NCBI RefSeq assembly: GCF_023055435.1
Contig: NW_025963909.1
Location: 1 to 64,000 of the forward strand
DNA from: Haliotis rufescens
Taxonomy: Eukaryota
Direction of reading: 5' to 3'
DNA length: 64,000 bases
Each line of letters starts with the position of its first letter. Position 1 is the first letter of the stretch. The notes beneath the pieces were generated by a model, which was not told the origin of the DNA, searched no databases, and worked only from the letters and a program-made list of their open reading frames with translations. Made by a program: the position numbers and the translations under genes. Below, in pieces: positions 7,542 to 29,072 of the stretch.

Positions 7542-9257
7542 TCTATGTGGGGCTTAGCGCTCCCGACCACAACCCCATCACCCCCTCGTTCCCTCACCAG
7601 TGGCGGGTATGGGCCACCGTACATGTGTTAGTAGGTATACATGTCCTACTGCAATGCGAAGTATCTAGTTACATCTAACAAATAAAGTTACATAGTATTA
7701 TGCTGTATTTAACTAATATTCCGCACACATATGTGAGAAGATAGAACCACACACCTACATACACCACGTGAAACGCGTCTAATAAAGTCTTATGACGTCA
7801 TTCCTTTATCAATTGGCACCAATGACGTCATATTGCAAGGGGCATAAGCCATCGTGTGTTTATTATGGAAATAGAACTCTCTGTAAATGTGAAAAAATAT
7901 GAACCGATTTTATTAATAAAATACATTTGATACGTGTGATATTTTCATTGTTTTGCCTCCGAAACTACTAGGTAAATACTTTTCATGATGAAAAAGTACA
8001 AGAAAAATAGGTTTGCTAGTTCCGGTCACAAAATATATGCTTTACCTTTTACTGATTTTTGTATTAATAACATTACAACGTTTCTCAAGGTTACAGACTC
8101 CAAGGATTCATTACAGTGTATTTTAAGCACCTAAAATTGACAACTAACACCCTGATCGCAAAACTCCTAACGGTTTTTACTAAAAATAGATACGAAAACC
8201 TTTGTTGAACCCGAGATTTGAATGACTGACAAATACGTACTTTCTTGTGTTCTCATACATAAAACAGCAGTGAAAACATGATCTAACATGGCTTAATGTG
8301 AGTAGTATAGTCTCAGTCCGCAGAAACCTTTTTTTGGTTGAGGGAGGTTGAGTGAAAATAGGGAAGGTGATTGGCTGATCCAAGTCACGTGATCGGATAG
8401 GATGACTCATGGATCAACAGAACGTCACAGGTGTGGGGGAATGAAAGGTGTGTGTTTATAAGGCAGAAAAGAATTCGTAAGTAAACAAAAGCAAAGGGTA
8501 TTCAATAGAGCTATGTGTGTGGCGTGCTGCCCTGAATACACTCTAAATCTATGTGTTCTAATATAGAACACTGGACGCGTCCATACGTTCTGCCACAGAA
8601 TACGAATGTTCTAATTCGTGCAGCACGTGTTCTATTGCTGAACGCCTGTGATCTGATGTAGAACGCGTGTGTTCTCTCCTGGGAGAAGTCCATGCACATT
8701 AGCAGAGATAATGTGCTGAATGCTGTTAGACAAATTTAAATTCGACCATCATATTTGTGTTTTCGGAATATTTATTTTTGAGAAGAGAGGCTGGTAGATT
8801 GGTATGTCAAACAGAAAATGTGTATAAGAATGGTTATATTTTGAGTTTGATGAATAATAAATAGTTTATAAACATGGCATACTTTGTGTTAATAATAACT
8901 CATATGTAGCCTGAATAAATACAACAAGAAACATTACTGAAATACATCTCATTGCTAATACATGGAAATAACTTGCTTGCATTGGGGACATTTACGTGTA
9001 TCAGAACACTGGCATTCTGATGGCTAATTTGAGCTGGATCTTTAATGGGTGCTCTGGAACATATACGGTCTATTTGCTGAACGCCTGCGTTCTCTCCTAG
9101 AACGCGTGTGCTCTGCTGTGTTCTATAATGTTATATGCGAGAACACGTGTTCCATTAATAGAACAACGGTGTTCTGTTTTTCTAACAAGCATTCAAAGCT
9201 GTCCATGCTCTGTGATTCACATCCGTTATGTGAGAAACTGGCGTGACGTCGCATGTA

Positions 9258-10852
9258 TACTACCCATCAAAAGTTTAGACTCACTGAAACCACTCACTAT
9301 ATCTCGTAAGAAAATCGTATTTGTGAAATCTACCGATAAAAAATAACAAAATCATTCATTTAGGTCTTCATATCCTTGTTCACAAGGACGTGTGCATTGA
9401 TGATTAGTGAACCAGAATGCCGTATTGGCTAGTACCATACAAAAGTGAAATTGCAAAATTTAATAACGGGTATGACCACCCCTGGCTCTAACACAGACAT
9501 TGCATCGACGTTGCATACCACGAAAGAACAGTTCAATCTGCCGCTGGGGAATGTTTGCCACTCCTCAAACAATGCATTGCGAAGTTGGCGAAGGTTAGCA
9601 GGGGGAGGAACTCTGGCATAAACACGCCGTCCCAGCAGATCCCAAACATGCTCAGTGGGGTTCATATCGGGCGATAATGCTCGCTAATCCATTCCATTCA
9701 CCCCATTTTGTTGTAAACAAGCTGACACGATGCGAGCTCTGTGAGGCCTGGCATTATCATCTTTGAAAACCGCGTGACCTGGCATGGCCCTTAAGAATGG
9801 AAGCACAATAGGAATGATGATCTCGTCCCTGTATCTCTGGCCAGTCAGATTTCCATCCTGTACCAGTAAATCAGTTCTTCCAGTCAGGGTGATACCTCCC
9901 CAGACGATAACGGATCCACCTCCAAATCGATCATGCTCCACAACAGCAACGTCAGCGTACCGCTCTCCCTGACGTCTGTAGACTGGGATCCGACCATCGT
10001 TGAAATGCAGATTGAACCTTGATTCGTCGGAGAAGAGTACCCTTGCCCATCTGCGGGGACCCCAGCGTAAATGTCCATTTCCCCAATTCAGTCTGTTCTG
10101 ACGGTGGCGTGGTGTAAGAGGGGGTCTTACAGCAAGACGACGTGCCCGCAGTCCGTAGTGACGTAATCGGCGGCGTATTGTTGATACAGATACACGTCGT
10201 CCTGTAGCTTGTTGGAAAGCATTATTGGCTGCTGTGGCTGTAATGTGTCTGCCCCTGAGAAACAGCAAAAAGACGCATCGGTCATCTTGCTGTGATGTTA
10301 CCCTGGGCCTACCCGACCTGGGTCGATCCTGGACGGTGGTGGTCTGTTGAAAGCGTACCCAGAGGTTGGATACTGCCTATTGGGATACGCCAAGACGTCT
10401 TGCAACATACCGTTGTGATCTGCCATCTTGTAGCAGTGCCAAGGCTTGATGTCGTTCCTCAATACGGAGATTCTCCCTCTACCCATGCTTGCATCAAAGA
10501 AGAATTTCTCCACTAACTCAGAAGAGCCAACTGCAATCCTTATAAAGATGAATTGCACGAGTATCCCGCGTCAAATTGCTCCTAAAACACGTGCATTATC
10601 GTGCACGTGAACACCTGCGTTTTGGTGCGAATTTTGTTTAAAAATGTGCGACATTTCACAGAGTTTTATCAATTAATGAACGAAAAACTCTCATCTTTTC
10701 ACCGTTACAGATTTGGTTTTACGCCACATCAGTTCATGTGCTAACAGTACCTGTAAAAAGTTTAGAATATTTGGCATTATCTGGTTTGAAACAGTTGAGT
10801 ATAGTGAGTGGCTACATTTACACTGGTGAGTCTAAACTTTTGATGGGTAGTA
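9258..10852 (-). mobile_element. Tc1/mariner DNA transposon, full length (~1.6 kb), decayed
   Basis: TIRs tactacccatcaaaagtttagactcac / gtgagtctaaacttttgatgggtagta flanked by TA; internal transposase. Confidence 0.93.
9460..10486 (-). pseudogene. Tc1 transposase pseudogene (DDE)
   Basis: Paired-like N-terminus with RSGRPR, then FSDESRF, FKDDNARPH and SPDMNPTEHVWD; frameshifts and an in-frame stop. Confidence 0.9.
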
Positions 10853-13419
10853 TATTTGGCGCTACAATTTCCTATGATCTGAGGTGTGTCTGTGGTAAGT
10901 ATCCATCTAGGAATACTTTTGTTTCATATTTTATACGTACCTAAAATAATGTAATATTTCGGCGATATATTCATATGCTGATCGCAAGCGAAGTAAAACC
11001 GGCCCCTTACAAAACGCATAGGAGACGACATATTACTCGCCATTTTGACCGTCATTTCTGCCATTGTTCCACGCGCTTTATTTATAAATTATGAGATGAA
11101 ATTCCAATCCAAATTGCAAGTGTCACTATTTGAACGTTTCCGTTTATTTGAATGATGTTCAAATAAAATGAATATATATTTCAGGTTCTATATGAATCAC
11201 CTGAAAGTTCGAAGCAGGCTACATGCAACAAATCTCTGAACATCTAAATTTGGGATCCGAGGGCATGATCAGCAAGCATCGACAACGCATCGAAATCAGC
11301 AGAGAGTAGTGTAAGTATGTAATGAACAAAAAGAACTAAACCTTCACAGGACATGTTTTGGCTATTTTATGTGAAATATTTTAGAGAATCAGTCTTGTTG
11401 TTTCTATTTCAGGGTGCATTGCAGATAATCAGTACCATCCATGGAAATTATTGCACAGGGCACACGTCTACACAAAGGAGGAAAAGACACAAGGTTTTGC
11501 AGATCAAATAAGAAGGTACTTGTGTATATTTTGCCCTAACCTTTATCCAAGTAAGTGGTAACTTTGTTAGTCAAATGACATTTTTGGCAAAACATTTTGC
11601 AACCTGTAAATAATGAAACAAATGTCACGGTAATCTTGGGTTTACTAACGAACATTTGTTAGAATAATGTCTTATGTAATATGTACGAGTTTGATAACTT
11701 TATGACTATGATCAAATAAATGTTTTGTGTTGTAGGATGTTGGGGAGTCATTTTTGACATGAAGTTTCCTGAAGCCAGCGATGGTCATGTCGCTGTTACG
11801 AACATCGTCCTTTGGGGATATTTACCCACAAGAAACATCTGCGAAGTACATGCGCTTCGTGAAAGACTTGAAACTTAAGTTATCTTAAGTATGGAAGTAT
11901 GCTTCAATTTGCTACACGACAGTTTGTAATGTTTCATGAAGAACTCTGACTCATAAGTGACTTGAATATCCATGATCATCCCAAACAAATATAATAAAGA
12001 ATTCATGGTTGCAGTTCAGAATTTCGTCTGTGTGATTTTATGCTAGAGAATATGCATGGGTGTATGGTTTAAATTCTTACACCTTGAAAAACATCGGGTA
12101 AATTGTTTTCGACACACACGATGAGTTGTCGTTTCAGTAATGTGGAAGTACGTGTCCGAGAACGTGTAGTGTTCTGAATCTCGGTCCAGAACCAGTGCGA
12201 CCTTGTTTGATGAATGCAGGGTGTGTGTTGAAAGTACAACCATACCGCAATAGAGACGGGTTGTGTCAACATGATATACGCCGGGTAATGTAGGGGAGGG
12301 GGAAAAAATGTACGTTTAGCTGGATCAAATCCATCTTATACAGTCTACACGTTGTACACCATGAACGTTAGACAACCTGTATAGAAAAAAATATAGACAA
12401 AATAGATAAGACTACACAATCAGCAAGCTAGCAGTGTCGTTTAATTACATTTAGCGCGCAACAACGAGGTAGTCACGTCACCCTGCATTGACTATAACGC
12501 TGAAGGCAGCTGGATTTCGAATCACCCACGCTGCGTACTATTGTGAACCATTTGTAAAGAATTATTCAGCCCTGTCCCGACTTGCATAGTTGATGTTTCA
12601 ATGCTAGCTTTTCCATTTAACGCAATGACAAATAAGCCCTACGGTTTGAGTTTTAACCGTGTAACATGCTATTATGAAAATAGATTTTGTTGTTTACAAT
12701 ACTCACCCTTAATTCGACGAGAGAACAGAGTTTATCATGGAAAATTGATTGACAAGGAAAATGTTTTATTGGAAATATATGTCGAAGCAGTTTTATTCAT
12801 AGCTAATGTATAGCAGAGAGACTAAGTGACCGACCGCCCATAACAATGTCTACATACCCCGGCCTTACAATTAATGTCAACATACCAGCCTCGCCTGAAG
12901 CTTCCCATTCATAAATTGTGTGACCAGTGTCCCGTATTCATGATATGTTAGGGAAGATGTGTTGTACATTTGTTAATTTAAAAGGGAGTTATTTCAGAGA
13001 GGATATATATGGGTATTCCCCCTCATTAAACTTTTCTTTCGTTGGTGTCTATTAAACCTATCCGGTATTTAATACATTTGAATGATGTAAGAAAGTATGT
13101 GTGTGTAGATGTTGTACCTATATCCGAACACGAATGTATGACACCTTTCAATAGATCAATTACGGTTCTAACCACGACACGCAACATGACTATAAGCGTG
13201 GTTAGCAGTTCATATTTATAAACACATCGTAAATGACAGATTTCTGATGAATGAACTCGCCCGCACACATGTCTATAGGGTTATGTTCGCCCGAACTGTA
13301 AACAGTGACACATTGATAACAGGAAGGGTGTGTGGAATGCACTCGTCCTTGTAAGGGTAAAATACGCGTTTAAACTCACCATTTAAACGATGACATTACT
13401 TTTTAGATGTATTGGTATC

Positions 13420-13660
13420 AGTGAGTGAGTGAATTTAGTTTTACGCCACACTCGGCATTATTCCAGCTCTAGGACGGTGGTCTGTCAATAAACGAGCTTG
13501 GACCAGACAATCCAGTGATCAACAGCATGAGCAGCGATCTGTGCAACTAGGAACCGATGGCACGTGTCATCCGAGTCGGCGAGACTGACCAATGGATCCC
13601 CGTCAGTCGCCGATAAGCATGGCTTACTGAAGGTCCATTCTATAACCCGGACCTTCACGG
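13420..13660 (-). mobile_element. SINE-like repeat, family C
   Basis: ggaccagacaatccagtgat...gcatgg...gaag...ttcta core shared with 16228, 30790, 41102 and 44720; (gagt)n tail. Confidence 0.65.
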
Positions 13661-15120
13661 GTGTAGTATGACGAAGACTATATACTAATATGATCGAAAA
13701 CTGAGAAAAAACAAACAATTCATTCGTATCATTTATTGATTCGAGTCAATCGGTTCCATACAAAGCCGTGATATACGAATGGACAATAGTATTCACTCTG
13801 GAACATTATTTAGTCACTCATATACACATGCTGCTGCTGCTCGAAGGCCCTATTGTTTAAACAGCGAGTCCATGTTTTGAAACACATTTCGCACTGTTGA
13901 ATGTTTCCTTTTCTACGCTGTTTTAAGGTTGAATGGTTGTCTATAGTCTATGCTTTATCCATTGCTTGTAACGATTTCCGTCCAGGAGGTCCCAGTTTCA
14001 CAATTCCTCTCACGTAGAGGGAAATTCGGCGTGGTCTCTTATACGAAGTGACGCCATATCTCCATCAGCAACTTGGGAGCTTATAAAGCAACTTCCAACA
14101 GAATTTGTCTCACGTATGAGCATAATACCACTGGATGATCACTTAGCGCCGGTGTCATTCGGATAGGACTCAGAACTACGAGTCATGGGGGTTTCCAATA
14201 GATCCAGGTTACTTAGTATAAGGTGATATACACACCGGATAATCGAGTATGTTACCAGACAGAAACCAAATCCCTTGTACACGTAAACCGTAAGTAACGT
14301 AGTTTGAAGCCAGGCGTATTATACCAAGCAACCCTTTCTCCGGACTCCAAAAATTCAATGAATTCAATGAACCATCGGAGAAGATTGCTTGTATTTTTGT
14401 TTGAAACGTGGCTCATTGGGTTAATGTATCTGCTTGAAAATCCTATGTTTAAAGTACCCCATGTTCCCGCGGCAAAGGTGTTAAAGCCCCACCCTGAATA
14501 TAAATAGCCCGCAAGGTGGAGGTGTATCAGTGTCGAACAGTGACTGACAATGTAGACACAACCGAGTGTCGGGAGAAGCTTTTTGAAAACCATACGGGAA
14601 CCAGATCACCAAAGACCGTCAAACTTCGTATCAACTTGAATGACAAACCATGTATACAACAAATGGCTCCATATCAAGATGTAAGTCAATAAATTTTCTA
14701 CAAGTGGAAACTTGACTTTTATGAAATCAGGTAACACCTTTGCCGCGGGAAGATGAAAGTGCACCTGCGGCTAAACTGATTGTGATCAATCAACAATGGC
14801 GTTCTCCGTGACACCAGTTTCACCGTAGTGGTAAACGTCTGAGACCTGCATCACTTCGGGCTTTCATCCAACATTAAGTTGACACGCCGCGTTATAACTG
14901 GAATATTGTTAAAAACCCAACTCACTCACTCATTCTCCGTGACACCAAACATAGCCTGTAAACTCACTTCCTTGAACTCATATAGAGACAGAAGCGAAAG
15001 AGAAAGTAGGTCTCTATTCTCGAGGCAGACTCGTACGTTCGCCTTAAATGGTATTGCCTGCCGATATGTATCCATTTTCAATTGGTGTAGTTCCTGATAA
15101 AGTGAGTGAGTTGGGCTTAC

Positions 15121-16711: not shown

Positions 16712-17554
16712 AACCATAACAAATGGCAATAATCATGGTATGGGATGACTGACAACAGGAGCTGTGCGATGCCAATGTCATCGGATAGAACAAACATTTG
16801 CCAACAAATAAAGAAGATATTGGTGAGTTGTGATTGAAATTTACTGACAAAACAGCAATGTAATACAGATATTGTTTTTCACCTTAGACAATACGTTAAA
16901 TAGGTTTGGAGCTGCAGGATTAAGTAAACGAGTTATGTTTCATGTTTCATGTGAAAATGTTCCTTCAGGTCTCTACTTGACATGACACGTGAAACAGATC
17001 AGTAGCGGGTTTAACCGCCACGTGCCCGGATGCCCTCATGCCTCCAGTCAGACGTTGGATCTATTGACAATCTCATTAAAATTAGACCTTAGTTCTCGCT
17101 ACCGCTAAACAAAGATCTGAGGACATCCCAGTAGAGGTCACGTCAGAACGACCTTTCATTCGACCAATCAGAGCGTCGCTTACCAGATCATGAGAGTCAC
17201 AGTTGGAATGTTATTTCTAATCATGCATCTTCGAAAACTTTAACACGGGGTGTTCCGAACGATAGTTACGGGTTTAACGACTGAATCCATACAATCTAGA
17301 CCATCTATTAGCCATTCCAGAAAGTTCTTTTGTTCAGGTTTCAAATTTTTAATCGAGAATTTGTCAAAATATGTTTCGAAGCGTTGTCACCAATTTGAAA
17401 ATAGTGCCATAAAGCACGAGAAAGCTGCCTTCTGATTGGTCATTCCATTAGTCGGACAAAGTTCGCGCAAGGTCGGTCTGACGTGTCCCGTAATGGGATG
17501 TTTAGCTGTTTCAGTTTATTTACCGTTCAAGTCAGTAGTCAGTAAATAACCGCT

Positions 17555-17910
17555 AGTAGAGAGAAAGTAATACCTTCCGGACAAAAGCATTCCTGTGGAG
17601 CATAGAATTTCCAACAATTCCTGTGGAGCATGGAATTTCCAACAAAAGCATTCCTGTGGAGCATAGAATTTCCAACAAAAGCATTCCTGTTACCTTCTGG
17701 ACAAAAGCAGTCCTGTTGAGCGTGGAATTTCCAACAAAGCATTCCTGTGGAGCGAGGAAATTCCAACAAAAGCAGTCCTGTGGAGCATGGAATTTCCAAC
17801 AAAAGCATTGTGGAGCAGCATTCCTATGGAGCGTAGAGTAAAGAAACAAACAAAAGCATTCTTGTGAAGCATACCACAGAGGCCAGTCAATACCTTTCAC
17901 ACAATAGAAG
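17555..17910 (+). repeat. Left TIR of the Maverick, built from ~33-bp tandem units
   Basis: Reverse complement of 28134-28392; unit aaaagcattcctgtggagcatggaatttccaac. Confidence 0.92.
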
Positions 17911-18139
17911 TTAACAATAACGTTCCATGATCAACGTTTCATCCACTCATAGAATGTATGGTGCGATGAATACTCAGTAACCAATGAAACGCTAAAGGAA
18001 GTCAAAGTACACCAATGAAATTCAACTTTATTGTTATAAGTTAAGCAGTGTTTAACTGTTGAAGCTTTCATTCGAGCTTAAACAGCGATCTTGTCAACAA
18101 GACGAAATCTTCACGCCAGTATACATCTTGAATCTGATC

Positions 18140-18649
18140 ATGGGAACCCGAACAACTGACAAGTATGTATTTTTTTACACCAGAACTTTAGTGTTTAGTC
18201 AACATTTTTCTACTGAGATTGTTATCGAAGGAATAGCATTTAACTGTGCTGAGCAGTATAACATGTATAAAAAAGCTTGTATGTTCAGAGATTGGGAAAC
18301 TGCGCATAAGATTTTAAAGTGTGTTTCTGCCACCGAACAAAAACGTTTAGGTAGAAGTGTGAGATGTTTTAATCAACGCCAATGGGATGCTGTGAGTTCC
18401 AATGTGGTGTATGCAGCATCTTCAGCTAAATCCACACAGTCTGTTTTTCTGAAGAAACAACTGTTAGACACTTTTCCCAAGATCTTGTTAGAAGCGAGTC
18501 CGTATGATCGTGCGTGGGGTGTGGGTCTATCACTGCATGACCCTAATATTCTTAATCCATCTAAATGGAAAGGCAGTTATAGACTTGGTCAGATCTTAAT
18601 GATGGTTAGAAATGAAATAATGAACACAGAGCCAAGTGAAAACTTATGA
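18140..18649 (+). CDS. NADAR/YbiA-family protein (element cargo)
   Basis: FSQHF...FNCAEQY.MYKKA.MF.D, EQKRLGRSVR.F, LLEASPYDRAWGVG and LGQILMMVR are typical NADAR motifs; first ATG at 18140. Confidence 0.88.
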   Translation: MGTRTTDKYVFFYTRTLVFSQHFSTEIVIEGIAFNCAEQYNMYKKACMFRDWETAHKILKCVSATEQKRLGRSVRCFNQRQWDAVSSNVVYAASSAKSTQSVFLKKQLLDTFPKILLEASPYDRAWGVGLSLHDPNILNPSKWKGSYRLGQILMMVRNEIMNTEPSENL

Positions 18650-18683
18650 CTTTAAATGTGTTACAGTGATGTAACTTGCTATT

Positions 18684-18971
18684 TTGAACAGAGGCAAGAA
18701 AACTACATTCTACTCGTGGAAGCAGGTCATGCGGATGCCACACACTCTAAATGACCCAGTCATAACAAGATCGCCTGAGTGGTTTCAAGATAGGGAAGAA
18801 TGCGCGAAAGATGCAAAGAGAAAATTTAAAGACGAATGCAAGACAACAAAGAGAGTCATTATCAAGAAGATTAAAACCTTACCACTCAACGCTGATGAAG
18901 TGGATATGGCTACAAAACTGAAACATGCAAAGGATCTTCTCACGTTGAGTTACTCTTTAGAAGTGATTTAA
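18684..18971 (+). CDS. Hypothetical small basic protein (element)
   Basis: Co-oriented open frame in the gene-dense element; no family recognised; start uncertain. Confidence 0.4.
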   Translation: MNRGKKTTFYSWKQVMRMPHTLNDPVITRSPEWFQDREECAKDAKRKFKDECKTTKRVIIKKIKTLPLNADEVDMATKLKHAKDLLTLSYSLEVI

Positions 18972-18986
18972 ACAATCAGCCAACTC

Positions 18987-19307
18987 GTGTGTGAAATGTG
19001 TATTCCTTGTCTGTTTAATGAAGAAGGTGATCCAATCTTTTTGGGAGAACATTCTTGTCGCATGACGGAGCAGGAGCAGGTGGATAAATACTTCAACGCG
19101 GCACTTGAGGATGCGGACAATGAACTGGTAATAGGAAAATGGATGAAACTTGTGACTGATGATCCAGATCTGTGCACAATGCCTGCTTTCCATTTAGTAC
19201 CTTACCAGTGTAAGGACTATCGTGACAATACATTCAAATCACCCGAATGGGTGAATGGTTTGAAGCAATGCGTTGTAAAAATGTTGAAGTTGCAAAAACG
19301 CTTGTAG
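18987..19307 (+). CDS. Hypothetical protein with CxxC...HxC motif (element)
   Basis: MCIPC...EHSC...DKYFNAA; followed by AATAAA near 19385; start uncertain. Confidence 0.45.
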   Translation: MCEMCIPCLFNEEGDPIFLGEHSCRMTEQEQVDKYFNAALEDADNELVIGKWMKLVTDDPDLCTMPAFHLVPYQCKDYRDNTFKSPEWVNGLKQCVVKMLKLQKRL

Positions 19308-19489
19308 ACTGTTTCCATGTCATATTATTCTATCAGTACCAAATTAAATGTGTGTGTGTGTACTTTAGCAATGTCCATACTATGAATAAAACATAAATTA
19401 TGCTTACATCTTTGTTTGTCTTCTTTTGATAGTTATCAAATGGTTGTTCTTTAATAGGTGTCTGTTGTCAGAGCTTCTCTCATTTCAAC

Positions 19490-20623
19490 ATGAAGCCACA
19501 ACAGAGAAAGGTGGTAACAAAGAAACAGGAGAAGATGTTAGAAAGTTACTATTTTAACCCACTTGAACCGGGGGCTTTTTATGGTCCTGAGAAACTTCAT
19601 AGCGTTCTGAAATTAGCTCGTCAACCAGATCTCAGACTGAGCACTGTGAAACGTTTTCTGAACAAACAGGACGCCTACAGTTTACACAGGCCACCCAAAC
19701 AGAGATTCAAAAGGCTGAGAGTTCGGGTATATTCTATAAATGAAATGTTTGATGTAGATTTGACCGACATGACTCGTTACAGCAAGGAGAATAATGGTGT
19801 GCGTTATTTACTGGTGGCTATTGACCTGAGTAGGTTTGCTTTCGCCCTGCCTTTAACAAATAAGGGACCAGAGACAGTATTGAAAGCTTTCAAAGAAATA
19901 ATTCAGGAACGAAATCCAATGAAAGTGCGTGTGGATGGTGGTTCAGAGTTTAAAGGAGTATTTAAAGTTTTTTTAGAAAAACACAATAGCACTCTGACTG
20001 TTGCACATAACGAAAACATCAAAAGTAATTATGTGGAACGATTCAACAGAACACTGAAATCACTTATTACGTGTTACTTGACCCATAATAACACCAAGTA
20101 TTATTTAGATGCACTGCCCAAGTTGATGGACAATTATAACAACACCTTACATTCTTCTTTGCCCAACCTTTCTCCAGTTCAAGTCAAGAAGAAGAATGAA
20201 CTGAAAGTATGGGAACATTTGTATGTGAAGCCGTTGTTACTTAAAAAAAGCTCCAAACACAACAGGTCAAAGTCATTTGTATTTAAAGTAGGGGATCTTG
20301 TTCGCATTCCATACATCCGGAGACCTTCCATTAAGGAACTTGATCTGAAGTGGACTCAGGAGCTGTTTAAGGTGGCTAGGCGATACAAGAGACAAGAGAT
20401 AGCACAGTATAAGATCAAAGACTTTCACGATAAACTGATAGAAGGTACGTTTTATGCCAACGAGCTACAAAAGGTGGAGAAAAAGGAAAATGTCTTGTGG
20501 CAGGTAGAGAAGATTTTAAAGAGAAAACGTGTGAAAGGGAAGACCTACCTGTTAGTGAGGTGGTTGGGCTGGCCGAGTTCCTTCGATTCTTATGCGGAGG
20601 AAAGTGAACTGAAAGATATCTGA
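19490..20623 (+). CDS. Maverick retroviral-like (rve) integrase with C-terminal chromodomain
   Basis: Catalytic D (FDVDLTDM), D (VRVDGGSEF), E (NYVERFNRTLK); GTFYANELQKV; chromodomain WQVEKILKRK...LLVRWLGWPSSFDSY. Confidence 0.95.
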   Translation: MKPQQRKVVTKKQEKMLESYYFNPLEPGAFYGPEKLHSVLKLARQPDLRLSTVKRFLNKQDAYSLHRPPKQRFKRLRVRVYSINEMFDVDLTDMTRYSKENNGVRYLLVAIDLSRFAFALPLTNKGPETVLKAFKEIIQERNPMKVRVDGGSEFKGVFKVFLEKHNSTLTVAHNENIKSNYVERFNRTLKSLITCYLTHNNTKYYLDALPKLMDNYNNTLHSSLPNLSPVQVKKKNELKVWEHLYVKPLLLKKSSKHNRSKSFVFKVGDLVRIPYIRRPSIKELDLKWTQELFKVARRYKRQEIAQYKIKDFHDKLIEGTFYANELQKVEKKENVLWQVEKILKRKRVKGKTYLLVRWLGWPSSFDSYAEESELKDI

Positions 20624-21037
20624 TTGAAAGGTACATATTTCTCAAAAGCTCAGACTCCAAACAATCTTATTTTAACGAGAATACGCCTTATCATTTTCGT
20701 GTCAAACTAAATCAAAGGTTGAATTTTGATGGATTCTGGGTTGTGTCTTTAACGGAGATTAATTTTGGTAAACTTGAATGATCCATATGTGGACGTGTTA
20801 TGCAATCTGTGTGATAGTTCTTTGGCAGGTGAACAGCAGTTGCCTTTATTGAGACGGCTTGATCTCAGACAAGGTCCTTACTATAGCTTTGCCCATGAAT
20901 ACAATATTCCGATTAAAGTCAAAGAATCTCCACACATAGAGGTGCGTATAAAGGCCAGTAACGGCATGTCACCCTCATTTCTAAAGGAAGTGACATATGT
21001 GACACTGCACTTGAGACGGTATCCCTTCGTTGATTAA
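20623..21037 (+). pseudogene. Minor capsid (penton) protein, short; lost start codon and frameshift
   Basis: Frame 1 from 20623 reads IERYIFLKSSDSKQSYFNENTPYHFRVKLNQRLNFDGFWVVSLTEI (Polinton mCP N-terminus); frame 2 continues LCNLCDSSLAGEQQLPLLRR...VTLHLRR (mCP C-terminus). Confidence 0.8.
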
Positions 21038-21039
21038 CC

Positions 21040-21390
21040 ATGGAGTCCACACCTTTGTATGTTCCCGATTATGTCAAATGGACCCACTATTTCAAGAAAC
21101 ACATGAAAGGAACATCTGCCTTAGTGAATGGTAAACCACAGGTGAAAGTGATCCTGACACGACTTCAAGTGAAGACCGAAGAACCCAAGATCAAACTGGA
21201 AGTGACATCAGAGATGCAGAATATTGTTGAGAGAGCCAATGCCAAAGAAAAGCGATGGAAATCTTTAAAACGAGCTGCAGGTGATCGAATCACCACTTCA
21301 AAGAAGATCCGTCAGACAGATAACATTCCATCCAAGACCGCTAAGGTTCTCCAGTGTACCCCTGTTCGAGAAAACGACGTTTTCAGTTAA
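21040..21390 (+). CDS. Small basic hypothetical protein (possible virion core protein)
   Basis: Tightly packed between mCP and MCP; K/R-rich. Confidence 0.55.
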   Translation: MESTPLYVPDYVKWTHYFKKHMKGTSALVNGKPQVKVILTRLQVKTEEPKIKLEVTSEMQNIVERANAKEKRWKSLKRAAGDRITTSKKIRQTDNIPSKTAKVLQCTPVRENDVFS

Positions 21391-21392
21391 TC

Positions 21393-22694
21393 ATGTCACT
21401 ATTGAATGATAAAGACTTTGAGGAACTGATACCGCCCTCTCTCAATCTGTTTATTTTACCACCATACCAGACCAGCATCCATCAACATTATTTTGATGAA
21501 GTGCGACCACTCAGCCAAATCAATGATTCTTCACCGTTGGAATTTCAAGTAATGAATGCTGGAAGTGATTACATTGACCTGAACCGTACCCGCCTACATG
21601 TGAAGCTCAAGGTGAAACATGCAGATGGCACTGATCTTGATGACAAGGAACATATTGTCCCTGTCAACTTGTTTCTGCAGGCCCTCTTTTCCCAGGTGTC
21701 AGTGTACCTGCAGAATCAGTTGGTATCTTCTACAAACAACCATTATGCTTACAAGAGCATGATGAAAACTCTACTCAACTATGGAACAGAAGCTAAAACT
21801 TCACAGCTGTCATCTCAACTCTTCTACAAAGATGTGTCTGAATCCAACAATGATGTGGAATCGACTGATCCCTACACTGGTCTCAATACAGGAGTGCAAT
21901 CTCGTGGCGGTTTCATTAATACTAGTAAAGTCTTGACCATGTCGGGGCCATTGTATGAAGATATCTTTCACATGAACAGACATTTGGTCAATGGAGTGGA
22001 TTTGACAGGGAAGCTGTACCGCTCCTCGCCCCAGTTCTGTTTGATGAGTGGCAAAACAGGTCAAGGTTACAAGGTGGAAATTCTGGATACCTACCTGAAG
22101 GTATGTAAACTGAAAGTCAATCCAGCTCTTATTTTGGCACACAACACCTTGTTTCAAGACAGCAATGCTTTGTATCCTTACACCAAAAGTGAGGTCAAGG
22201 TGACAAGCATCCCCACCACTCAACTGACACATACCATTGACAATCTGTCGAATCCTATTGCTAATCGTTACATCGTAGGCTTTGTACTCAGCAACAGCTT
22301 GAATGGATCTTACACTGGTAACCCCTACAACTTCCAATCTAGTATGGTGAAAAACATCAGCCTGTACATCAATGGTGCCAGTGTCCCCGGACAACCCATG
22401 CAGGCAGATGACGTTGAGTCCTTTGTGCAGATGTTCGATGGGATGTGTCTGTGGAAAGAAAATACAAGAAACGGAATAACTCGGGGCGACTTTTTGCTCG
22501 GGAGTGCCCTGTACGTCTTCGACATTGATAAAGTATGCAGTGAATCCGACTATCTGAATCTGTTGAAATCCGGTAGCACCCGACTAGAAATCGAGTTCAA
22601 ATACGCCCTCACCGAAACACTCAGTTGTGTTGTTCTGAGTGAAAGAAATTCCCTCATCGAAATTGACAAGACCAGGAACGTGTTTGTGAAGTAA
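21393..22694 (+). CDS. Major capsid protein (double jelly-roll, Polinton PY-type)
   Basis: SLNLFILPPYQTSI...EVRPLSQINDSSPLEF...DYIDLNRTRLHVKLKV, LFSQVSVYL, YAYKSMMKTLLNY, NPYNFQ, LEIEFKYAL, IEIDKTRNV; 433 aa from ATG 21393. Confidence 0.93.
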   Translation: MSLLNDKDFEELIPPSLNLFILPPYQTSIHQHYFDEVRPLSQINDSSPLEFQVMNAGSDYIDLNRTRLHVKLKVKHADGTDLDDKEHIVPVNLFLQALFSQVSVYLQNQLVSSTNNHYAYKSMMKTLLNYGTEAKTSQLSSQLFYKDVSESNNDVESTDPYTGLNTGVQSRGGFINTSKVLTMSGPLYEDIFHMNRHLVNGVDLTGKLYRSSPQFCLMSGKTGQGYKVEILDTYLKVCKLKVNPALILAHNTLFQDSNALYPYTKSEVKVTSIPTTQLTHTIDNLSNPIANRYIVGFVLSNSLNGSYTGNPYNFQSSMVKNISLYINGASVPGQPMQADDVESFVQMFDGMCLWKENTRNGITRGDFLLGSALYVFDIDKVCSESDYLNLLKSGSTRLEIEFKYALTETLSCVVLSERNSLIEIDKTRNVFVK

Positions 22695-22699
22695 AAAAC

Positions 22700-23194
22700 A
22701 TGAAAGCCTCTGACCTTGCATGTGCTATTCAAAGCTACTCCATCTTAAAGTACCATGTCTTAGGTGTGTTTGCCAAAGATACTTTACCTGTGCTAACTAG
22801 AGTCATGCTTGCACGTGGAGTGGGTCTCATTGTCAATACTGAACCATCTGGAAGACCGGGTCGTCCCTGGGTGGCTATGTACTTCAAAGGAAATACAGGG
22901 GAACTGTTTGACAGTCTGGGTGAGCCAGTGAATTCCGTTTTTGACTTGTACTTAAAAACATATGTCAATCAATACCAGCACAACAGAAGACAGTTACAGT
23001 CCTCATCATCCAACCTTTGTGGTCATTATTGTTTATATTATTTGTTGTATAAATGCAAAACAGAACTTACCCTTCAAACCCTTGTGCAGATATTTGATGT
23101 GCAAGTCCGTTTTAACAATGATGAGCATGTGTCAAATTGTATCTGTAATTATTTTAGATATTGTTTGTTATCTTGTCATACCTGTGTCATGTAA
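22700..23194 (+). CDS. Adenain-like cysteine protease; catalytic His apparently replaced by Pro
   Basis: IVNTEPSGRPGRPWVAMY, FDSLG, QLQ...NLCGHYCLYYL. Confidence 0.88.
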   Translation: MKASDLACAIQSYSILKYHVLGVFAKDTLPVLTRVMLARGVGLIVNTEPSGRPGRPWVAMYFKGNTGELFDSLGEPVNSVFDLYLKTYVNQYQHNRRQLQSSSSNLCGHYCLYYLLYKCKTELTLQTLVQIFDVQVRFNNDEHVSNCICNYFRYCLLSCHTCVM

Positions 23195-23326
23195 CATAAT
23201 ACTGTACTTGTGTAACCCATTAACAAAATGAAATAAAAAAATTAGTGTAGTCATTCGAGTTTTTCTATAAATATAAGTAACTCAGCTGTATTGTCACAGT
23301 TGAATTATTGTGCTCAGGGTGAGATC

Positions 23327-23992
23327 ATGGAACGTAAGTGTCTCTTACCAATACAAACACCTACCGCCATATCTGTGATTGGTGGATCTTCCTCAGGGAA
23401 AACAGTTTGGGTGAAAAGGTTGTTAGAGCAAGCTAATCTGATGTTTGACAAACCTCCCAACCTTATTGTGTACTGCTATGCCGTATGGCAAGACATCTAC
23501 AGTGACATGCAGCAAAACATTTCTAACATTCTTTTTATGGATTCCCTTCCAACTGAGAATGATTTGAAAATGTGGTCTGAGCAATCTGAAAAGAACATGG
23601 TGTTGGTCATGGATGACATGATGATGGATATATGTAAAAGTCCACTGATGTTAAATCTCTACACTATATTGTCTCATCATTGGGGAATCAGTGTTATAAA
23701 TATTCAACAGTCTGCTTATCCTAAGGGGGATTGTAACCGAACTATTTCCTTGAATACACACTACTTCATTTTGCTATCTAACCCACGTTCTGCACATGAA
23801 TATAAAATCTTGGCATCTCAAATATTTCCAGGACAAGCCAAATATTTTACTGAATCATTTCGTGACGCAGTGGAGGGAAAGAAATTTCAATATTTAATGA
23901 TTGACGTATCACCCTATTCCGATCCTCAGTATGGGCGTCTGCGCAGTGGTGTCTTTCCAGATGAAGTATGTATTGTGTACCAACCCAAATAA
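23327..23992 (+). CDS. A32/FtsK-like genome-packaging ATPase
   Basis: Walker A GGSSSGKT, Walker B LVMDDMM, SHHWGISVINIQQ, RTISLNTHY, YLMID. Confidence 0.93.
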   Translation: MERKCLLPIQTPTAISVIGGSSSGKTVWVKRLLEQANLMFDKPPNLIVYCYAVWQDIYSDMQQNISNILFMDSLPTENDLKMWSEQSEKNMVLVMDDMMMDICKSPLMLNLYTILSHHWGISVINIQQSAYPKGDCNRTISLNTHYFILLSNPRSAHEYKILASQIFPGQAKYFTESFRDAVEGKKFQYLMIDVSPYSDPQYGRLRSGVFPDEVCIVYQPK

Positions 23993-24067
23993 AAGCTACT
24001 GCTGAAAGTTATACCCACCAGTTGCCCGTCTTACCAATGAACACATCAGTTGCTTAATGAGGTCATC

Positions 24068-24379
24068 ATGGATGTTTGCGGACGATTTGAAGATATTGCT
24101 AACGATTGTTCATTGATTTCAACCAATGCTGAAGTGTATGGGGATAGCTTTTGTGAGAGATTAAAGTCCTTCGCCAGTTGGCCCGTGCAAATGAAACAGT
24201 CTCTGAAGACTATGGCACAAGCAGGATTCATTTACACGGGTCAATCAGATAAAGTCTACTGTTTCATGTGTCGATTGCGTGTACATAAATGGATGCCAGA
24301 AGATGAACCACTAACTGAACATTTCAGGTTATCACCTCAGTGTAGTTACATAAACGTGATAGCTTCTAATACCGAATGA
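24068..24379 (+). CDS. Single-BIR inhibitor-of-apoptosis-like protein (element cargo)
   Basis: ERLKSFASWP...MAQAGFIYTG..DKVYCFMC...W...DEPLTEHFRLSPQC matches the BIR CX2CX16HX6C pattern; no RING. Confidence 0.9.
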   Translation: MDVCGRFEDIANDCSLISTNAEVYGDSFCERLKSFASWPVQMKQSLKTMAQAGFIYTGQSDKVYCFMCRLRVHKWMPEDEPLTEHFRLSPQCSYINVIASNTE

Positions 24380-24486
24380 GAGACATCGGCTATTGTGTAT
24401 GAGGAATATTAGGGTCTAAGCATACATATATAAAAGTCACAATAACCTAGTTGGATCATTTCACATCGTGATCTCTTCACATCAAT

Positions 24487-24945
24487 ATGGGTGATTTACT
24501 GGAAAAACATCTGTCTTTTCTTCAGACACTACTGCAGGCTAATGTGAAGCAGAGGAAAGCTTTACTTCAATATGTGTCATGTGAACAAATGCATGCTATT
24601 AATAGCATGATGTTAAACACTTTGAAAGGGAATATTCCGCTCTCACTGATGGATAAAACTCGCTTGCACCGTCATAGGTTTCACATTAGAACATTGGCTG
24701 CCAAAGAAGGTTTTCCCAATCGGATTAAAAAGGAGGTGTTGATAAGACATCATTCGATCTTGCCTATTTGCATTGCTGCACTGTTAGATTACCTACATCA
24801 TGAGCAGACCTATGGTTCTCCTGAACAGGAACACATACCAACGCCTGATAGACAACCAGGAAAAGGAGAAGACAGCGACTCAGGAACAACAACAACAACA
24901 GATAATGACTCCGGATCGGGAGACGAGTCCTCTGAGACTGAATGA
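24487..24945 (+). CDS. Conserved Polinton-type small helical basic protein
   Basis: HLSFLQTL...KQRKALL...QMHAI...LNTLKGNIPLS resembles the small ORF typical of animal Mavericks; TATA tatataaaag near 24427. Confidence 0.65.
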   Translation: MGDLLEKHLSFLQTLLQANVKQRKALLQYVSCEQMHAINSMMLNTLKGNIPLSLMDKTRLHRHRFHIRTLAAKEGFPNRIKKEVLIRHHSILPICIAALLDYLHHEQTYGSPEQEHIPTPDRQPGKGEDSDSGTTTTTDNDSGSGDESSETE

Positions 24946-25327
24946 GACCCCTGAAAAAATCACCCATGATGAAGCACAGATTAAAGCGAATACGAACTTG
25001 ATTCTGGATCTACTTCTTAAGGATGTGTCATTAACTAAAACGATTGGCAAACTCACCAAACTATGGTACTTTATCAGGGATCAGATCAGAAACGCTCACT
25101 TCAGACTGAATGATCAGTTAGAAATTGTGTTAGATAATGAGAATGTGTAGATCGGAACTAACGTTATTGACCTCATTCGTTTTACTGTGATGCATCGTGG
25201 GGCTGTTCCTACAGGCTACCGTGACTTTCTCAAACTTTTAAAAATGCTCCATGTACCAAAGCGGCTTTTGTAGAAGCCAGATGCAAAGAAAAAGAACGAC
25301 AAAAGAAAGAAGGCAAAATCATCTTGA
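24800..25327 (+). pseudogene. Conserved Polinton-type ORF interrupted by premature stops
   Basis: Starts MSRPMVLL...YQRL; the frame continues past the TAG at 25148 as IGTNVIDLIRFTV...PTGYRDFLKLLKMLHVPKRLL, completing an (L/W)ND..EIV.D....G.N..DL motif seen in Maverick ORFs. Confidence 0.6.
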
Positions 25328-26044
25328 TATCTAAAACGACAAGCACAACATGGTGTGCCCGGTGCTAATACTACTGCAAAATTAAGAAAACTACAGTCTT
25401 TCTAACTGTACATGCACATTGAATTCATGACATGTATTCTATGTAACTTTCTGATTGTAAAGCAATAAAATAATGCTAACACATGCGTCTTTAGTTATTA
25501 CTATCTTCCATGTTCATGAGGACTCTGAGCTGCAGCTCAAGTCTTTCTTTTTTGTCATCACAGAAGAAATGTCTATGCATATAATCCGAGTCATTGTAAC
25601 GCACAGTGTGCTGGTCCTGAAACTCTAGCCCAAGGCTTACCCTCTGTTCTTGGCTTTTTCCAAGATGGTATGAAGGGGCAGCTCATTCACTGCACGATCA
25701 AAGTATTGAGTAATACACTCGTCACAAACTATACATTTTGGAGCTCTATAGAAATATAAGTTCAAACTTAAGTGCAAACAGCTGCACACAATGAACATGA
25801 GTGGTGTGGCTGCTATTCAAAACAGTTTCAGATTGCTTCAAGACAGATGTATCAAGCGGGTGTATAATAGGGTAGTACTAAGAACTGCTGAATCACCTTG
25901 ACCGAGTACACAAGCTATACAATATTTTTAAGAAAATGTTTACCATGGGATGGTACTGAAAACGTGACACTTTAAAAGCACAGGTGTTCCATTATGAAAG
26001 ACTACATAAAAGGGATACACTTAATGAAAGAGCCGTATAGAGAG

Positions 26045-26388
26045 GTGGTGAGGTGAGGTGAAATTGGGTTTAACGTCGCGTCCAAGATTATTGCACTTAT
26101 ATAGCGACGTGCATGCACGTGTGTGTGTGTGTGTGTATATGTGTGGCTGCTTGTACTAGTCCGGACTGATGCCGATTTATAGTGCTAGCTCACTGAGATA
26201 CCGTCCTGCAGTTTAACATGAATACCCCACTCAGACACAGTATAGTGACTCCGAGCCAACCAGTCCTTGTTTTAGCCCCTTAATGTCGAGCGCCAGACAG
26301 GGTAACAACAAGTACCATCTTTTAACGTCTTTTGGTATGACGCGGCCGGGGATCAAACCCCGGACCTTCCGCTCTCCGGGCGGACGCT
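26045..26388 (-). mobile_element. SINE family A inserted in the Maverick
   Basis: 13-bp TSD gccgtatagagag at 26032-26044 and 26389-26401; body matches the other family A copies. Confidence 0.88.
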
Positions 26389-26758
26389 GCCGTATAGAGA
26401 GTGTGTTACTAAAAACTCGATATTGATTAAAAATGAGAGAGTAACAAGTGGTGGCTTTGTGGATTCGTTCTTGTTAAGTCAATAGGGCTGCTGTCTGGTC
26501 AAACAGAAATCTAGAAAACGTACTAATTAAAAATCGTATGCCATCACTCACAAGCAAAGTATAGTGAGTCAGAAGTATATGTATACACCATGTGTATGCG
26601 AGGTGTAACAGTTGATACCATTTGAAAAGAACAAGGCAACATAATGAAGTAGTTTTTCCCGTGAGAAAGTGACAACATGCTGAATCACCTTTCTTGCAGA
26701 GTGAATATAAATATAACGTGTTAGTGGTTCATTTCGGGAGAAGACACTTTACTCGAAA

Positions 26759-26974
26759 ATGTCTGACAATCACATCCACACTACGTTTGAGTGGGCTGCT
26801 GGCCATTGGCTGTCCATCAACTTGTTCCGTGATGATGCTTGGGTGCATCTTTCAAACTACAACAGCAAAAAGGAAAGGAAACCCATTTCCTTGAAAAGCA
26901 GTGTATTTAGAAAACTGACTGAAGATCGCGAACAAATTCTATCTGCTTTGGAGGACTATTTCAAGTGCTTTGGC

Positions 26975-27004
<30 letters not shown>
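26759..27004 (+). CDS. PC4/Sub1-like ssDNA-binding protein (putative)
   Basis: F....HWLSINLFRDDAWVHL..Y....KPISL...VF..L....EQI..AL resembles the PC4 core; TATA at ~26707; 3' end runs into (TAT)n. Confidence 0.5.
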
Positions 27005-27005
<1 letters not shown>

Positions 27006-28133
27006 TTATCCTTCCTTTTCAGCCATCGTGGGGTACAATGCTCAGTGAGACGAGAAAGGAAAAGACTGCTTCGGCGTAGATTGCATCGCGGGTATTATCG
27101 ACACATACGCGAGCATCTCACTGTGTTTTCTAAAATAAAAGCATATTTTTAATCAGAATGTGTGTATGTTTTATGTTTCAATTCGCAGTTATTCGCTCTC
27201 ATGGTCTATCAATGTGATATGAGCCACTAGTGTGATACGAGTTACCTCCCTTGGATCACGAGGGCAGGCCGCTCGCTTCACCCGTCTTTCGGTGTATGTA
27301 TTCATGCCAGCCAGCATTCATTGTTTCTTCACTGTCAATAGTGTATTACCTCCCTTACACCGGTAAGCCGTTCGTCTGCAGGTATCCGGTGTAGCCGAAC
27401 GGTTTGACCGTTGTTTTTCCAGCTAAGTTTACTACATGATGATATATAAGAAGAAATTAAATCCAGCCATGTACAATTGATGGAATAAATATGATTAAAC
27501 CAAATATGAACTGAGCGAATGGTTAATTCAAACGGAATATATGGAGGAATGATTAATGAAACAGTGTTGTACAGTCATAAGGTAAGTTCACTTATTTTCA
27601 TTATTACTATTACATCAATTAGTTTGTGTCATAAAGCAGAAAACATACGAATTACACATCTGCAGATGGGTATAATGTATACTTTCTACTCAAGTTCTAA
27701 CATAATGGCGAACACAAGTAACAGCGATATTATCTAGTTGGTGATCGCCTGAAAGCAACATTTAACCCTTAATGTTACGTTAGCACACTGAAACAGATAA
27801 AAAGTTAAAGAGTGATAGAAATGTTAATAGATAAAGGTTAATAGATATAGGTGAATGAATACCGCTATAAACAATAACATAATATTTTAACACTTAGTGA
27901 AACGTGAATGAAGTAGAGAAAAATGTTTATAAATGAATTGACATCGGTGAAAGGGTTAACAGGTTCAGCGGCTAAAACCCACACACGAATAGATTTACTC
28001 TTGCGTGTAAAGCGTGGGTGAGAGAGCTACCCCTAGTGTATTGATACTAATGTGCGGTGACATAGTTACATGTTTGAACAGAGCGAATATATACAGAGCC
28101 AGCCTTACTGCTAGTCTCCTTTAGCAAAATTTG

Positions 28134-28392
28134 CTTCTATTGTGTGAAAGGTATTGACTGGCCTCTGTGGTATGCTCCACAAGAATGCTTTTGTTTGTTT
28201 CTTTACTCTAACGCTCCACAGGAATGCTTTTGTTTGTTTCTTTACTCTACGCTCCACAGAAATGCTTTTGTTAGAAAAATTCCATGCTCCACAGGAATTT
28301 GTTGAAATTCTATGCTCCACAGGAATGCTTTTGTTGGTGCTCCACGCTCCACAGGAATGCTTTTGTCCGGAAGGTATTACTTTCTCTCTACT
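28134..28392 (-). repeat. Right TIR of the Maverick
   Basis: Reverse complement of the left TIR with a different number of internal tandem units. Confidence 0.92.
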
Positions 28393-29072
28393 ACCGCTCT
28401 CAATGCGTCATATTACCACTCTCGAAAAAAAGGGCAATCGTGGTGTATAAGATAACACTGAAAAAGTAGTCAACTTGACATGCATGTCTTTAGATGCTTG
28501 CTACAACAGCTTTATTAATCACAGCGAAGTAGATTTCGCTTGACAAAATATTATCGCTCCGCTCTTATATGTAAATGTACCTGGGAATCTATGCACTGCA
28601 TAGACATTTGCATTTATCCTAAATGACTGGCTTTCCTTTGTTTCGAAGTTCTAAACAACGAAAGTAGCTCTTCTTGTCTCGCCTCTATCTATAAAGAGAA
28701 GCCAACTCATCAACTTCAGCGAATTCAGCCTGGTTCCCTGGGTATGTAGAACAAGCGCAGCATACCCAGGGACCAGGCTGGAGTGAATTTTGAGTGATTA
28801 TTTTACGGCGCTTCACGTCTTTCGCACGTCGATGTTAATGGCGTAAACATAGATAATATTGCTAAAACAGTCAACACTGTCGTCGTGGTTTTCAGATTGA
28901 ACCCATGTCAAGGAAATAGAGTTGTGAATACATGAGATTTCAGGTTATAATTGTTTAATGTCGTTACAGCACGGAAAATAACATTTATGGCAGTGACCTT
29001 CACCCCTTAACATATCCGGTTGTAAGAAAGACGTGTGAGTTTTAAAAACATTTACATTTGTTTTAATTCATA

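Follow-up and report, generated by a model that had tools for sequence, protein, structure and literature searches.

Why would a small integrated virus in the genome of an abalone keep, next to its terminus, a gene of the NADAR family, and which ADP-ribose adduct would the encoded enzyme remove? The question is raised by one open reading frame in the window, i.e., the whole 64,000-nucleotide stretch of Haliotis rufescens DNA analysed here (contig NW_025963909.1, positions 1 to 64,000), for which it had originally been proposed that a virus may use NADAR to reverse host ADP-ribosylation of its genome. The present analysis shows that NADAR is genuine viral cargo, inherited and under selection, in a virus class that is new for this family, and renders a counter-defence role plausible.

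The NADAR gene and its element

The element is a Maverick/Polinton (17555-28392) with AGTAG...CTACT ends. It is flanked by a 6-bp target-site duplication (ACCGCT, 17549..17554, matched at 28393..28398) and bounded by a left terminal inverted repeat (TIR; 17555..17910, + strand) that starts with AGTAG and contains internal ~33-nt repeats, and by a right TIR (28134..28392, - strand) that ends with CTACT; the identity between the two repeats extends to about 17910 and 28134. NADAR, orfAB, an integrase-chromodomain gene, the capsid genes, a protease, an A32-like ATPase and a BIR gene follow one another on one strand (+). The hallmarks of Mavericks found here are the AGT-type TIR ends, the 6-bp duplication and the Pfam matches of integrase and ATPase, together with a protease recognised weakly by Pfam, a major capsid protein recognised by named homologues and a minor capsid protein assigned by position only.

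The NADAR (YbiA-type) gene (18140..18649, + strand) is an intronless ATG frame of 169 aa with Pfam and PDB matches. It begins 230 nt past the TIR and is the first frame there, which confirms the original placement of a NADAR/YbiA frame directly inside the left TIR; against the NADAR profile PF08719 (curated cut-off 35.1 bits), the window frame scores 130 bits (E=1e-37) and its counterpart in a full-length sister copy 153 bits. The profile and structure searches proposed at the time agree with this assignment, as the window frame matches PDB sequences 8BAU (E=6e-10) and 2B3W, and the structure predicted for a natural open-frame sister copy, from which the fold of the window copy is taken, reaches a pLDDT of 91 with TM scores of 0.83 to 8BAU and 0.77 to 2B3W. 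This model contains the helical core and two small flanking sheets of the YbiA fold. The concern that catalytic residues might be missing is dispelled, since E38, K45 and E118 are all present in the window protein, being mapped by alignment to 8BAU E43, K50 and E125 (the numbering is offset by two and was matched by residue identity), with the roles of catalytic and ligand-contact residues taken from PMC11543638 (in excerpt). Equivalents of 8BAU E43, K50, E125, K75, G78, R79, W89, D130 and W133 are all retained in the alignment; those of D86 and R93 are changed, both at positions that vary across the NADAR family. Among the Maverick rows aligned, the first-helix Glu (8BAU E43) occurs in 13/13, the Lys (K50) in 12/13 and the last-strand Glu (E125) in 11/13, and among the family-A copies tested, E38 and K45 occur in 10/10 and E118 in 8/10. 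The last-strand residue is Glu in the YbiA subfamily, Asp in DarG1 and His in T4-type proteins. With Glu instead of Asp, no N-terminal extension and no ART in the element, the Maverick NADAR belongs to the YbiA subfamily and does not qualify as a DarG1 antitoxin; as modelled, it is a bare YbiA core without the DarG1-style DNA-binding extension. Net charge is +7 to +10 in family A and +1 in family B, with a family mean of +1 (SD 5.8).

A pair of CCAAT boxes (17981-85 and 18012-16, + strand) forms a putative NADAR promoter. Of the 9 Maverick copies scanned, 8 have two or three such boxes in the 220 nt before NADAR and the ninth has one; none was found in two solo NADAR copies or before four other element genes, and one precedes BIR. 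A single AATAAA (19385..19390, + strand), the first past the TIR, lies downstream of orfAB and marks the predicted 3' end of both NADAR and orfAB. Together, these signals suggest an early transcript produced by host polymerase. Contigs from sequencing runs X2, X4, X9 and X10 (four studies) end at 19353-19401, a weak hint of a transcript end near 19385, given that these runs are only guessed to be RNA and that contigs of X16 and X18 continue past the AATAAA; the copy behind the contig of X2, X9 and X10 has lost 74 nt across the start of NADAR.

The neighbouring genes all lie on the + strand. orfAB (18729..19307) encodes a Cys/His-rich, helical conserved protein of 192 aa in open copies and contains one stop in the window; it has no Pfam or Atlas match, and its single-sequence model (pLDDT 40) is all-helical at low confidence. 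orfAB (L037:2090-2665) and a 243-aa ORF beside the polymerase gene (L037:8937-9665) are distant paralogues (E=6e-5) with a common Cys/His pattern, and neither has a credible family match. A retroviral-like integrase with a C-terminal chromodomain follows (19490..20623; Chromo in the window, rve and Chromo in the sister), then the probable minor capsid gene (20608..21037), which has no family match and is split into two frames here compared with a single 142-aa frame in the sister. Next comes a small conserved core gene (21040..21390), which has no family match and which we take to be PZ-like. The probable major capsid protein (21393..22694) has homologues named F54H12.2-like and one named 'Capsid protein', and no Pfam or PDB sequence match was found for it; it is 99% identical to a Haliotis-named protein, and the capsid lineage extends to Gigantopelta at 79%. 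The adenovirus-like protease (22700..23194; weak Peptidase_C5 match, E=0.017, in the sister copy) differs from the sister by one change in the catalytic-motif region. It is followed by the A32-like packaging ATPase (23327..23992, PF04665), the BIR (inhibitor of apoptosis) domain gene (24068..24379, PF00653, E=8e-23), which is predicted to be a second counter-defence cargo, and two overlapping conserved core ORFs (24487..25401), presumably PW-like, of which the second is truncated in the window. Outside the element, the window contains a 272-aa ORF (33386-34204), a tandem-repeat ORF region (50256-50967) and a 410-aa ORF (61566-62798) whose translation gives the impression of a candidate seven-transmembrane receptor.

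The possibility that this particular copy is decayed, raised at the outset, is borne out. Full-length sisters are ~19.7 kb long and encode a 1388-aa protein-primed DNA polymerase (PF03175 in a sister); the window copy lacks ~5.1 kb including this gene (sister positions 9169-14265, junction at 25724..25726) and is therefore non-autonomous. The same junction occurs in the window, at C1:10.30M and in both C583:49.7M copies (49.73M and 49.76M). Because flank and target site at C1:10.30M are identical to those of the window, this locus represents the same insertion and not an independent one. A polymerase-less sub-lineage with one common 5.1-kb deletion is found at two or more distinct target sites and therefore appears to have been mobilised in trans. 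Relative to 11 other insertions, the window NADAR carries six private non-synonymous and no private synonymous changes. The departures from consensus noted originally are real and lie at residues 98 and 147 of this protein, of which the former holds one residue class in 217/219 unrelated rows and the latter one residue in 216/219; the enzyme of this copy is therefore predicted to be damaged. On these sequence grounds, including the stop in orfAB and the split minor capsid region, the flagged copy is a decaying insertion, i.e., a fossil. Six of the ten family-A copies tested, including the window copy and its twin, combine an open frame with the full catalytic triplet; two have early stops and two lack E118. 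The window stretch was also found in sequencing runs of four organisms, with contigs that span NADAR beside orfAB; runs X2, X9 and X10 (two organisms) share the same flank at 17554 and the same 74-nt deletion, suggesting that the insertion at 17554 is old and common to different species.

Distribution, constraint and origin

A protein search of the host genome, in which 150 of 152 candidates were scored, returned 107 NADAR matches, of which 17 fall in a host gene cluster and the remainder correspond to 73 loci. orfAB lies within 2.5 kb downstream in 38 of these 73 loci, and among the other 35, of which 21 were inspected, Maverick genes occur within ~5 kb in 15. Maverick context is present in at least 53 of the 73 non-cluster loci and extends over six families or subfamilies. 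It had been cautioned that NADAR might be a one-off capture absent from sister copies; the many independent Maverick insertions in several families rule this out. The related claim that NADAR is the first gene of the virus is true of families A, A2, B and B2 but not of families C and D, where the BIR gene precedes it. Family A comprises 14 loci that represent 12 independent insertions, and left-end NADAR genes were likewise detected in families A2 (76% identity), B, B2 and C. Family D retains an N-terminal NADAR remnant, with six copies matching the N-terminal part only, and families E, F, G and H have none. NADAR is missing upstream of 44 of 82 orfAB loci and has been lost from one young family-A copy; four young family-A insertions retain an open NADAR frame with all three catalytic residues. 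The gene is dispensable for the element, as shown by the related families that do without it and by the weaker constraint inside family A.

The left-end slot is exchangeable: in A and B it contains only NADAR, in C and D it contains BIR followed by NADAR, in F a PC4 gene, and elsewhere nothing. NADAR-orfAB is still found at the TIR in family B, even though the orientation of the core block is reversed there. The NADAR and orfAB trees agree in separating A and A2 from B and C and conflict with the capsid and integrase trees, which place C with A, so that the left-end cassette must have recombined as a unit. Two other Mavericks show unusual architectures. One (G000:C68:30288400-30302500, L148-L149) is a 99% perfect 14-kb palindrome of the left half, from orfAB to ATPase, with neither polymerase nor NADAR between the arms. 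The other, a family-B element at C334:29.72M (L056, L054) with TIRs that are 99.7% identical, has received a ~4.5-kb insertion with gag-, RT/RNase H- and tyrosine-recombinase-like ORFs, which is presumably DIRS-like.

Pairwise Nei-Gojobori comparisons of natural copies give between-family NADAR dN/dS values of ~0.1-0.25, pointing to purifying selection on the gene between Maverick families. Between A and A2, the ratio is 0.18 for NADAR (dS 0.70), 0.31 for integrase and 0.22 for orfAB; NADAR values are 0.15-0.19 for A versus B and 0.17-0.25 in comparisons with C, dS being near saturation in both. Within family A, private NADAR variants show the neutrality (w 1.15) that insertion should bring about. 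For variants that at least two family-A insertions have in common, the non-synonymous to synonymous ratio is 7:3 in NADAR versus 28:71 in five core genes (Fisher p=0.012). The low between-family ratios and the 7:3 count within family A therefore indicate long-term constraint that has recently relaxed or given way to diversification, two outcomes that a count of only 10 shared variants cannot separate.

All sampled Maverick NADARs form one clade with the library proteins P0057 and P0059 from other samples (support 95/99, 100/99 and, among 378 rows, 0.985 in three trees). Of the proposed comparison with host and other NADARs, the single clade is well defined, but its sister group relative to the host differs among four trees: host NADAR domains are a weak sister in one, the Maverick clade falls outside them in three others, and grouping with Haliotis host domains is not rejected by the AU test (p=0.07). 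An aromatic/His-Pro signature before the catalytic strand occurs in 13/14 Haliotis, 10/13 Maverick and 26/219 other rows, and eight of the ten signature-bearing other rows looked up are named molluscs. At the level of sequence, this two-residue signature links viral to molluscan NADARs, and capture of the gene from a molluscan transcript is plausible. The host itself contains a tandem NADAR cluster (G000:C112:19970000-20090000, L113-L124), which is intron-bearing and multi-domain with 22 third-exon matches, three exons per domain and long acidic linkers; three of its domains lack the last-strand Glu. A Haliotis-named multi-NADAR protein matches the host genome at 97% identity or more over 3422 of 4240 positions. 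Elsewhere, a search of viral_contigs gave 12 NADAR loci with 36-48% identity that lie outside the Maverick clade, and a search of that collection with the NADAR alignment returned no match. A search of metagenome_contigs gave 12 loci with one clade member, on a 1.3-kb contig without a second gene, and phage records (n=730) reach less than 60% identity. In the clade member P0059/P0194 (L153:101-1036), which comes from a different sample, the N-terminus weakly resembles PC4, a ssDNA-binding domain, and is joined on by a proline-rich linker. As PC4, this N-terminus scores E=0.09 in Pfam and 0.87 in Atlas; a PC4 profile built for this analysis, of which two rows derive from the wrong strand, gives 9.6 bits, a value reached by 1/2000 shuffles, and pairwise BLAST against PC4 is negative.

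Proposed function and its alternatives

The reading that we favour, tentatively and at slightly less than even odds, is that an early-expressed NADAR hydrolase removes base-linked ADP-ribose from viral nucleic acid and thereby counters host ADP-ribosylation. Host RNA polymerase II would transcribe NADAR early from the paired CCAAT boxes, a host transferase would add ADP-ribose to guanines or cytosines in the nucleic acid of the virus, and NADAR, like its YbiA-type relatives, would hydrolyse the N-glycosidic bond between base and ADP-ribose. Exposure would probably be greatest for the single-stranded DNA displaced in protein-primed replication, or for viral transcripts. Erasure of base-linked ADP-ribose is favoured because tested NADARs clear guanine-ADPr and phage AdfN rescues viral DNA: guanine-ADPr was hydrolysed in vitro by all NADARs tested in PMC11125620 and PMC11543638, and the AdfN work describes counter-defence by this hydrolysis (PMC11825919; all in excerpt). 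Some NADARs also clear ADP-ribose from cytosine and RNA (PMC12945103, in excerpt), and the substrates named include cytidine-ADPr, RNA and small ribosides; the DNA-guanine reading is therefore one of several, and in-vitro guanine activity is no predictor of the in-vivo role (PMC11125620, in excerpt). Counter-defence is further supported by the BIR anti-apoptosis gene in the same element, by the left-end slot, which swaps with PC4 or BIR, and by the weakly PC4-like N-terminus of P0059/P0194.

The host genome contains 24 PARP matches and five ARTC-type (PF01129) matches. The ARTC-type genes form a small single-frame group at C90:28.658-28.671M and C112:43.853M (L165-L169). Scabin-like/pierisin (PF22596) and DarT (PF14487) profiles gave no match in the host genome, with the controls silent too. 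We know of no guanine-DNA-modifying PARP in animals. The link to pierisin or CARP-1 drawn in the original prediction is unsupported in this host, and a PARP-type or ARTC-type host enzyme is the more likely writer. CARP-1 homologues are mainly bivalve (PMC12945103), and CARP-1-type proteins are described from six clams (PMC11209040; both in excerpt). A broader proposal, which we consider unlikely, is that gastropods use antiviral base-linked DNA ADP-ribosylation by an unrecognised non-pierisin transferase, which Mavericks would counter with NADAR and against which the host would protect itself with its multi-NADAR cluster; if true, this would amount to an animal version of the DarT1/AdfN conflict known from bacteria. 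A link between NADAR and nematode irg-1 found no support in the literature.

The enzyme may instead act on a protein that carries ADP-ribose or on a small signal derived from ADP-ribose, still as a counter to host ADP-ribose immunity, a possibility that we rate as unlikely. In the excerpts available, PMC9503650 argues that phage NADARs act on soluble ADPr derivatives and that NADARs of animal RNA viruses act, like Macro domains, on host-made macromolecular adducts; the host has PARPs, the viral protein resembles a bare YbiA core without the DarG1 DNA-binding extension, and the charge in family B is close to the family mean. However, the ADPr substrates shown so far for NADARs are all nucleobase-linked, and the family-A proteins are basic. 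If ordinary protein ADP-ribosylation were the substrate, the gene would represent one more viral anti-PARP enzyme. A different source of damage is invoked by the improbable view that NADAR shields the infected cell, or the genome of the virus, against bacterial ADP-ribosylating genotoxins and not against a host antiviral enzyme. Such a role is proposed for animal NADARs in PMC12945103 (in excerpt), citing antibacterial ladybird NADARs, and is consistent with an expanded host cluster, which indicates a pressure that is not virus-specific, and with the failure of profile searches, whose controls were silent, to find a host guanine transferase. Yet with ~22 host NADAR domains a viral copy would add little against outside toxins, and long-term selection on the viral gene is easier to explain by virus-directed pressure.

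Loss of the gene from a young copy, its absence or truncation in several families and the near-neutral shared variants within family A could also mean that NADAR is an old capture, once useful and now a passenger being lost. This is quite improbable in view of the A versus A2 dN/dS of 0.18, which is equal to or below that of integrase, and of the four young family-A insertions that remain open with all catalytic residues, the shared variants numbering only 10. An addiction module, with NADAR as antitoxin and orfAB as toxin, could account for the adjacency of the two genes, their one predicted poly(A) site and their concordant trees, unlike those of capsid and integrase. It is very improbable because the 13 ORFs of a full-length copy include none that is ART-like and orfAB stays open in families and copies without NADAR; orfAB itself has no ART family match and is predicted, at low confidence, to be all-helical, so that the toxin-antitoxin pairing is largely rejected. 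Animals do not make riboflavin, and the element contains no riboflavin-pathway gene. Hardly credible, then, is the notion that NADAR acts on riboflavin intermediates as a metabolite-damage N-glycosidase, in the manner of E. coli YbiA, even though this was the first activity described for the family (PMC11125620, PMC11543638; in excerpt).

A 12-gene virus that keeps NADAR under selection implies a host factor that ADP-ribosylates a viral substrate. What NADARs and guanine ADP-ribosylation do physiologically in animals is described as an open question (PMC11125620, PMC12945103; in excerpt). The system offers a practical handle on it, as it combines an enzyme that is small and can be expressed in bacteria, a host genus that is defined, elements with and without NADAR and a host cluster for comparison.

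Comparison with known systems

The element resembles published animal Mavericks/Polintons (PMC8097293, PMC8502044; in excerpt) in its AGT-type TIR ends, 6-bp duplication, integrase, ATPase, protease and capsids, as well as in the pPolB of full-length copies and the accessory regions at its ends. NADAR is absent from the main text of the Maverick and dsDNA-element papers examined, and a literature search covering non-subscription papers found no report of NADAR in Polintons/Mavericks or mollusc transposons. As cargo of eukaryotic viruses, NADAR has precedents in giant DNA viruses and invertebrate RNA viruses, and it is also known in phages (PMC9503650); the hosts listed there include molluscs, crustaceans and annelids, and the available part of this survey names Polintons/Mavericks 0 times. 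Structural matches were found in BFVD. The Maverick clade is separate from the seven IMG/VR proteins sampled. With Mavericks, the range of NADAR now takes in a class of small viruses besides the large ones.

Among cellular proteins, the Phytophthora nicotianae NADAR (8BAU) and E. coli YbiA (2B3W) have in common with the Maverick protein their fold, the catalytic Glu-Lys-Glu set and most of the residues in contact with ADP-ribose, although identity is ~30% and those enzymes are cellular whereas this one is viral. The molluscan host NADARs (C112:19.97-20.09 Mb) share the aromatic/His-Pro signature, but they are multi-domain and intron-bearing, in contrast to the single-domain, intronless Maverick gene. 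A functional parallel is phage AdfN (T4 gp30.3, Bas32 and Bas60; PMC11825919, in excerpt), likewise a stand-alone viral NADAR without a cognate toxin; the working model there is that it counters the ADP-ribosylation of viral DNA by the host. The Maverick differs in being an integrating virus of eukaryotes and in having the YbiA-type Glu rather than the T4-type His, and the abalone genome yielded no DarT match (controls silent); by analogy, the Maverick NADAR may nevertheless work like AdfN.
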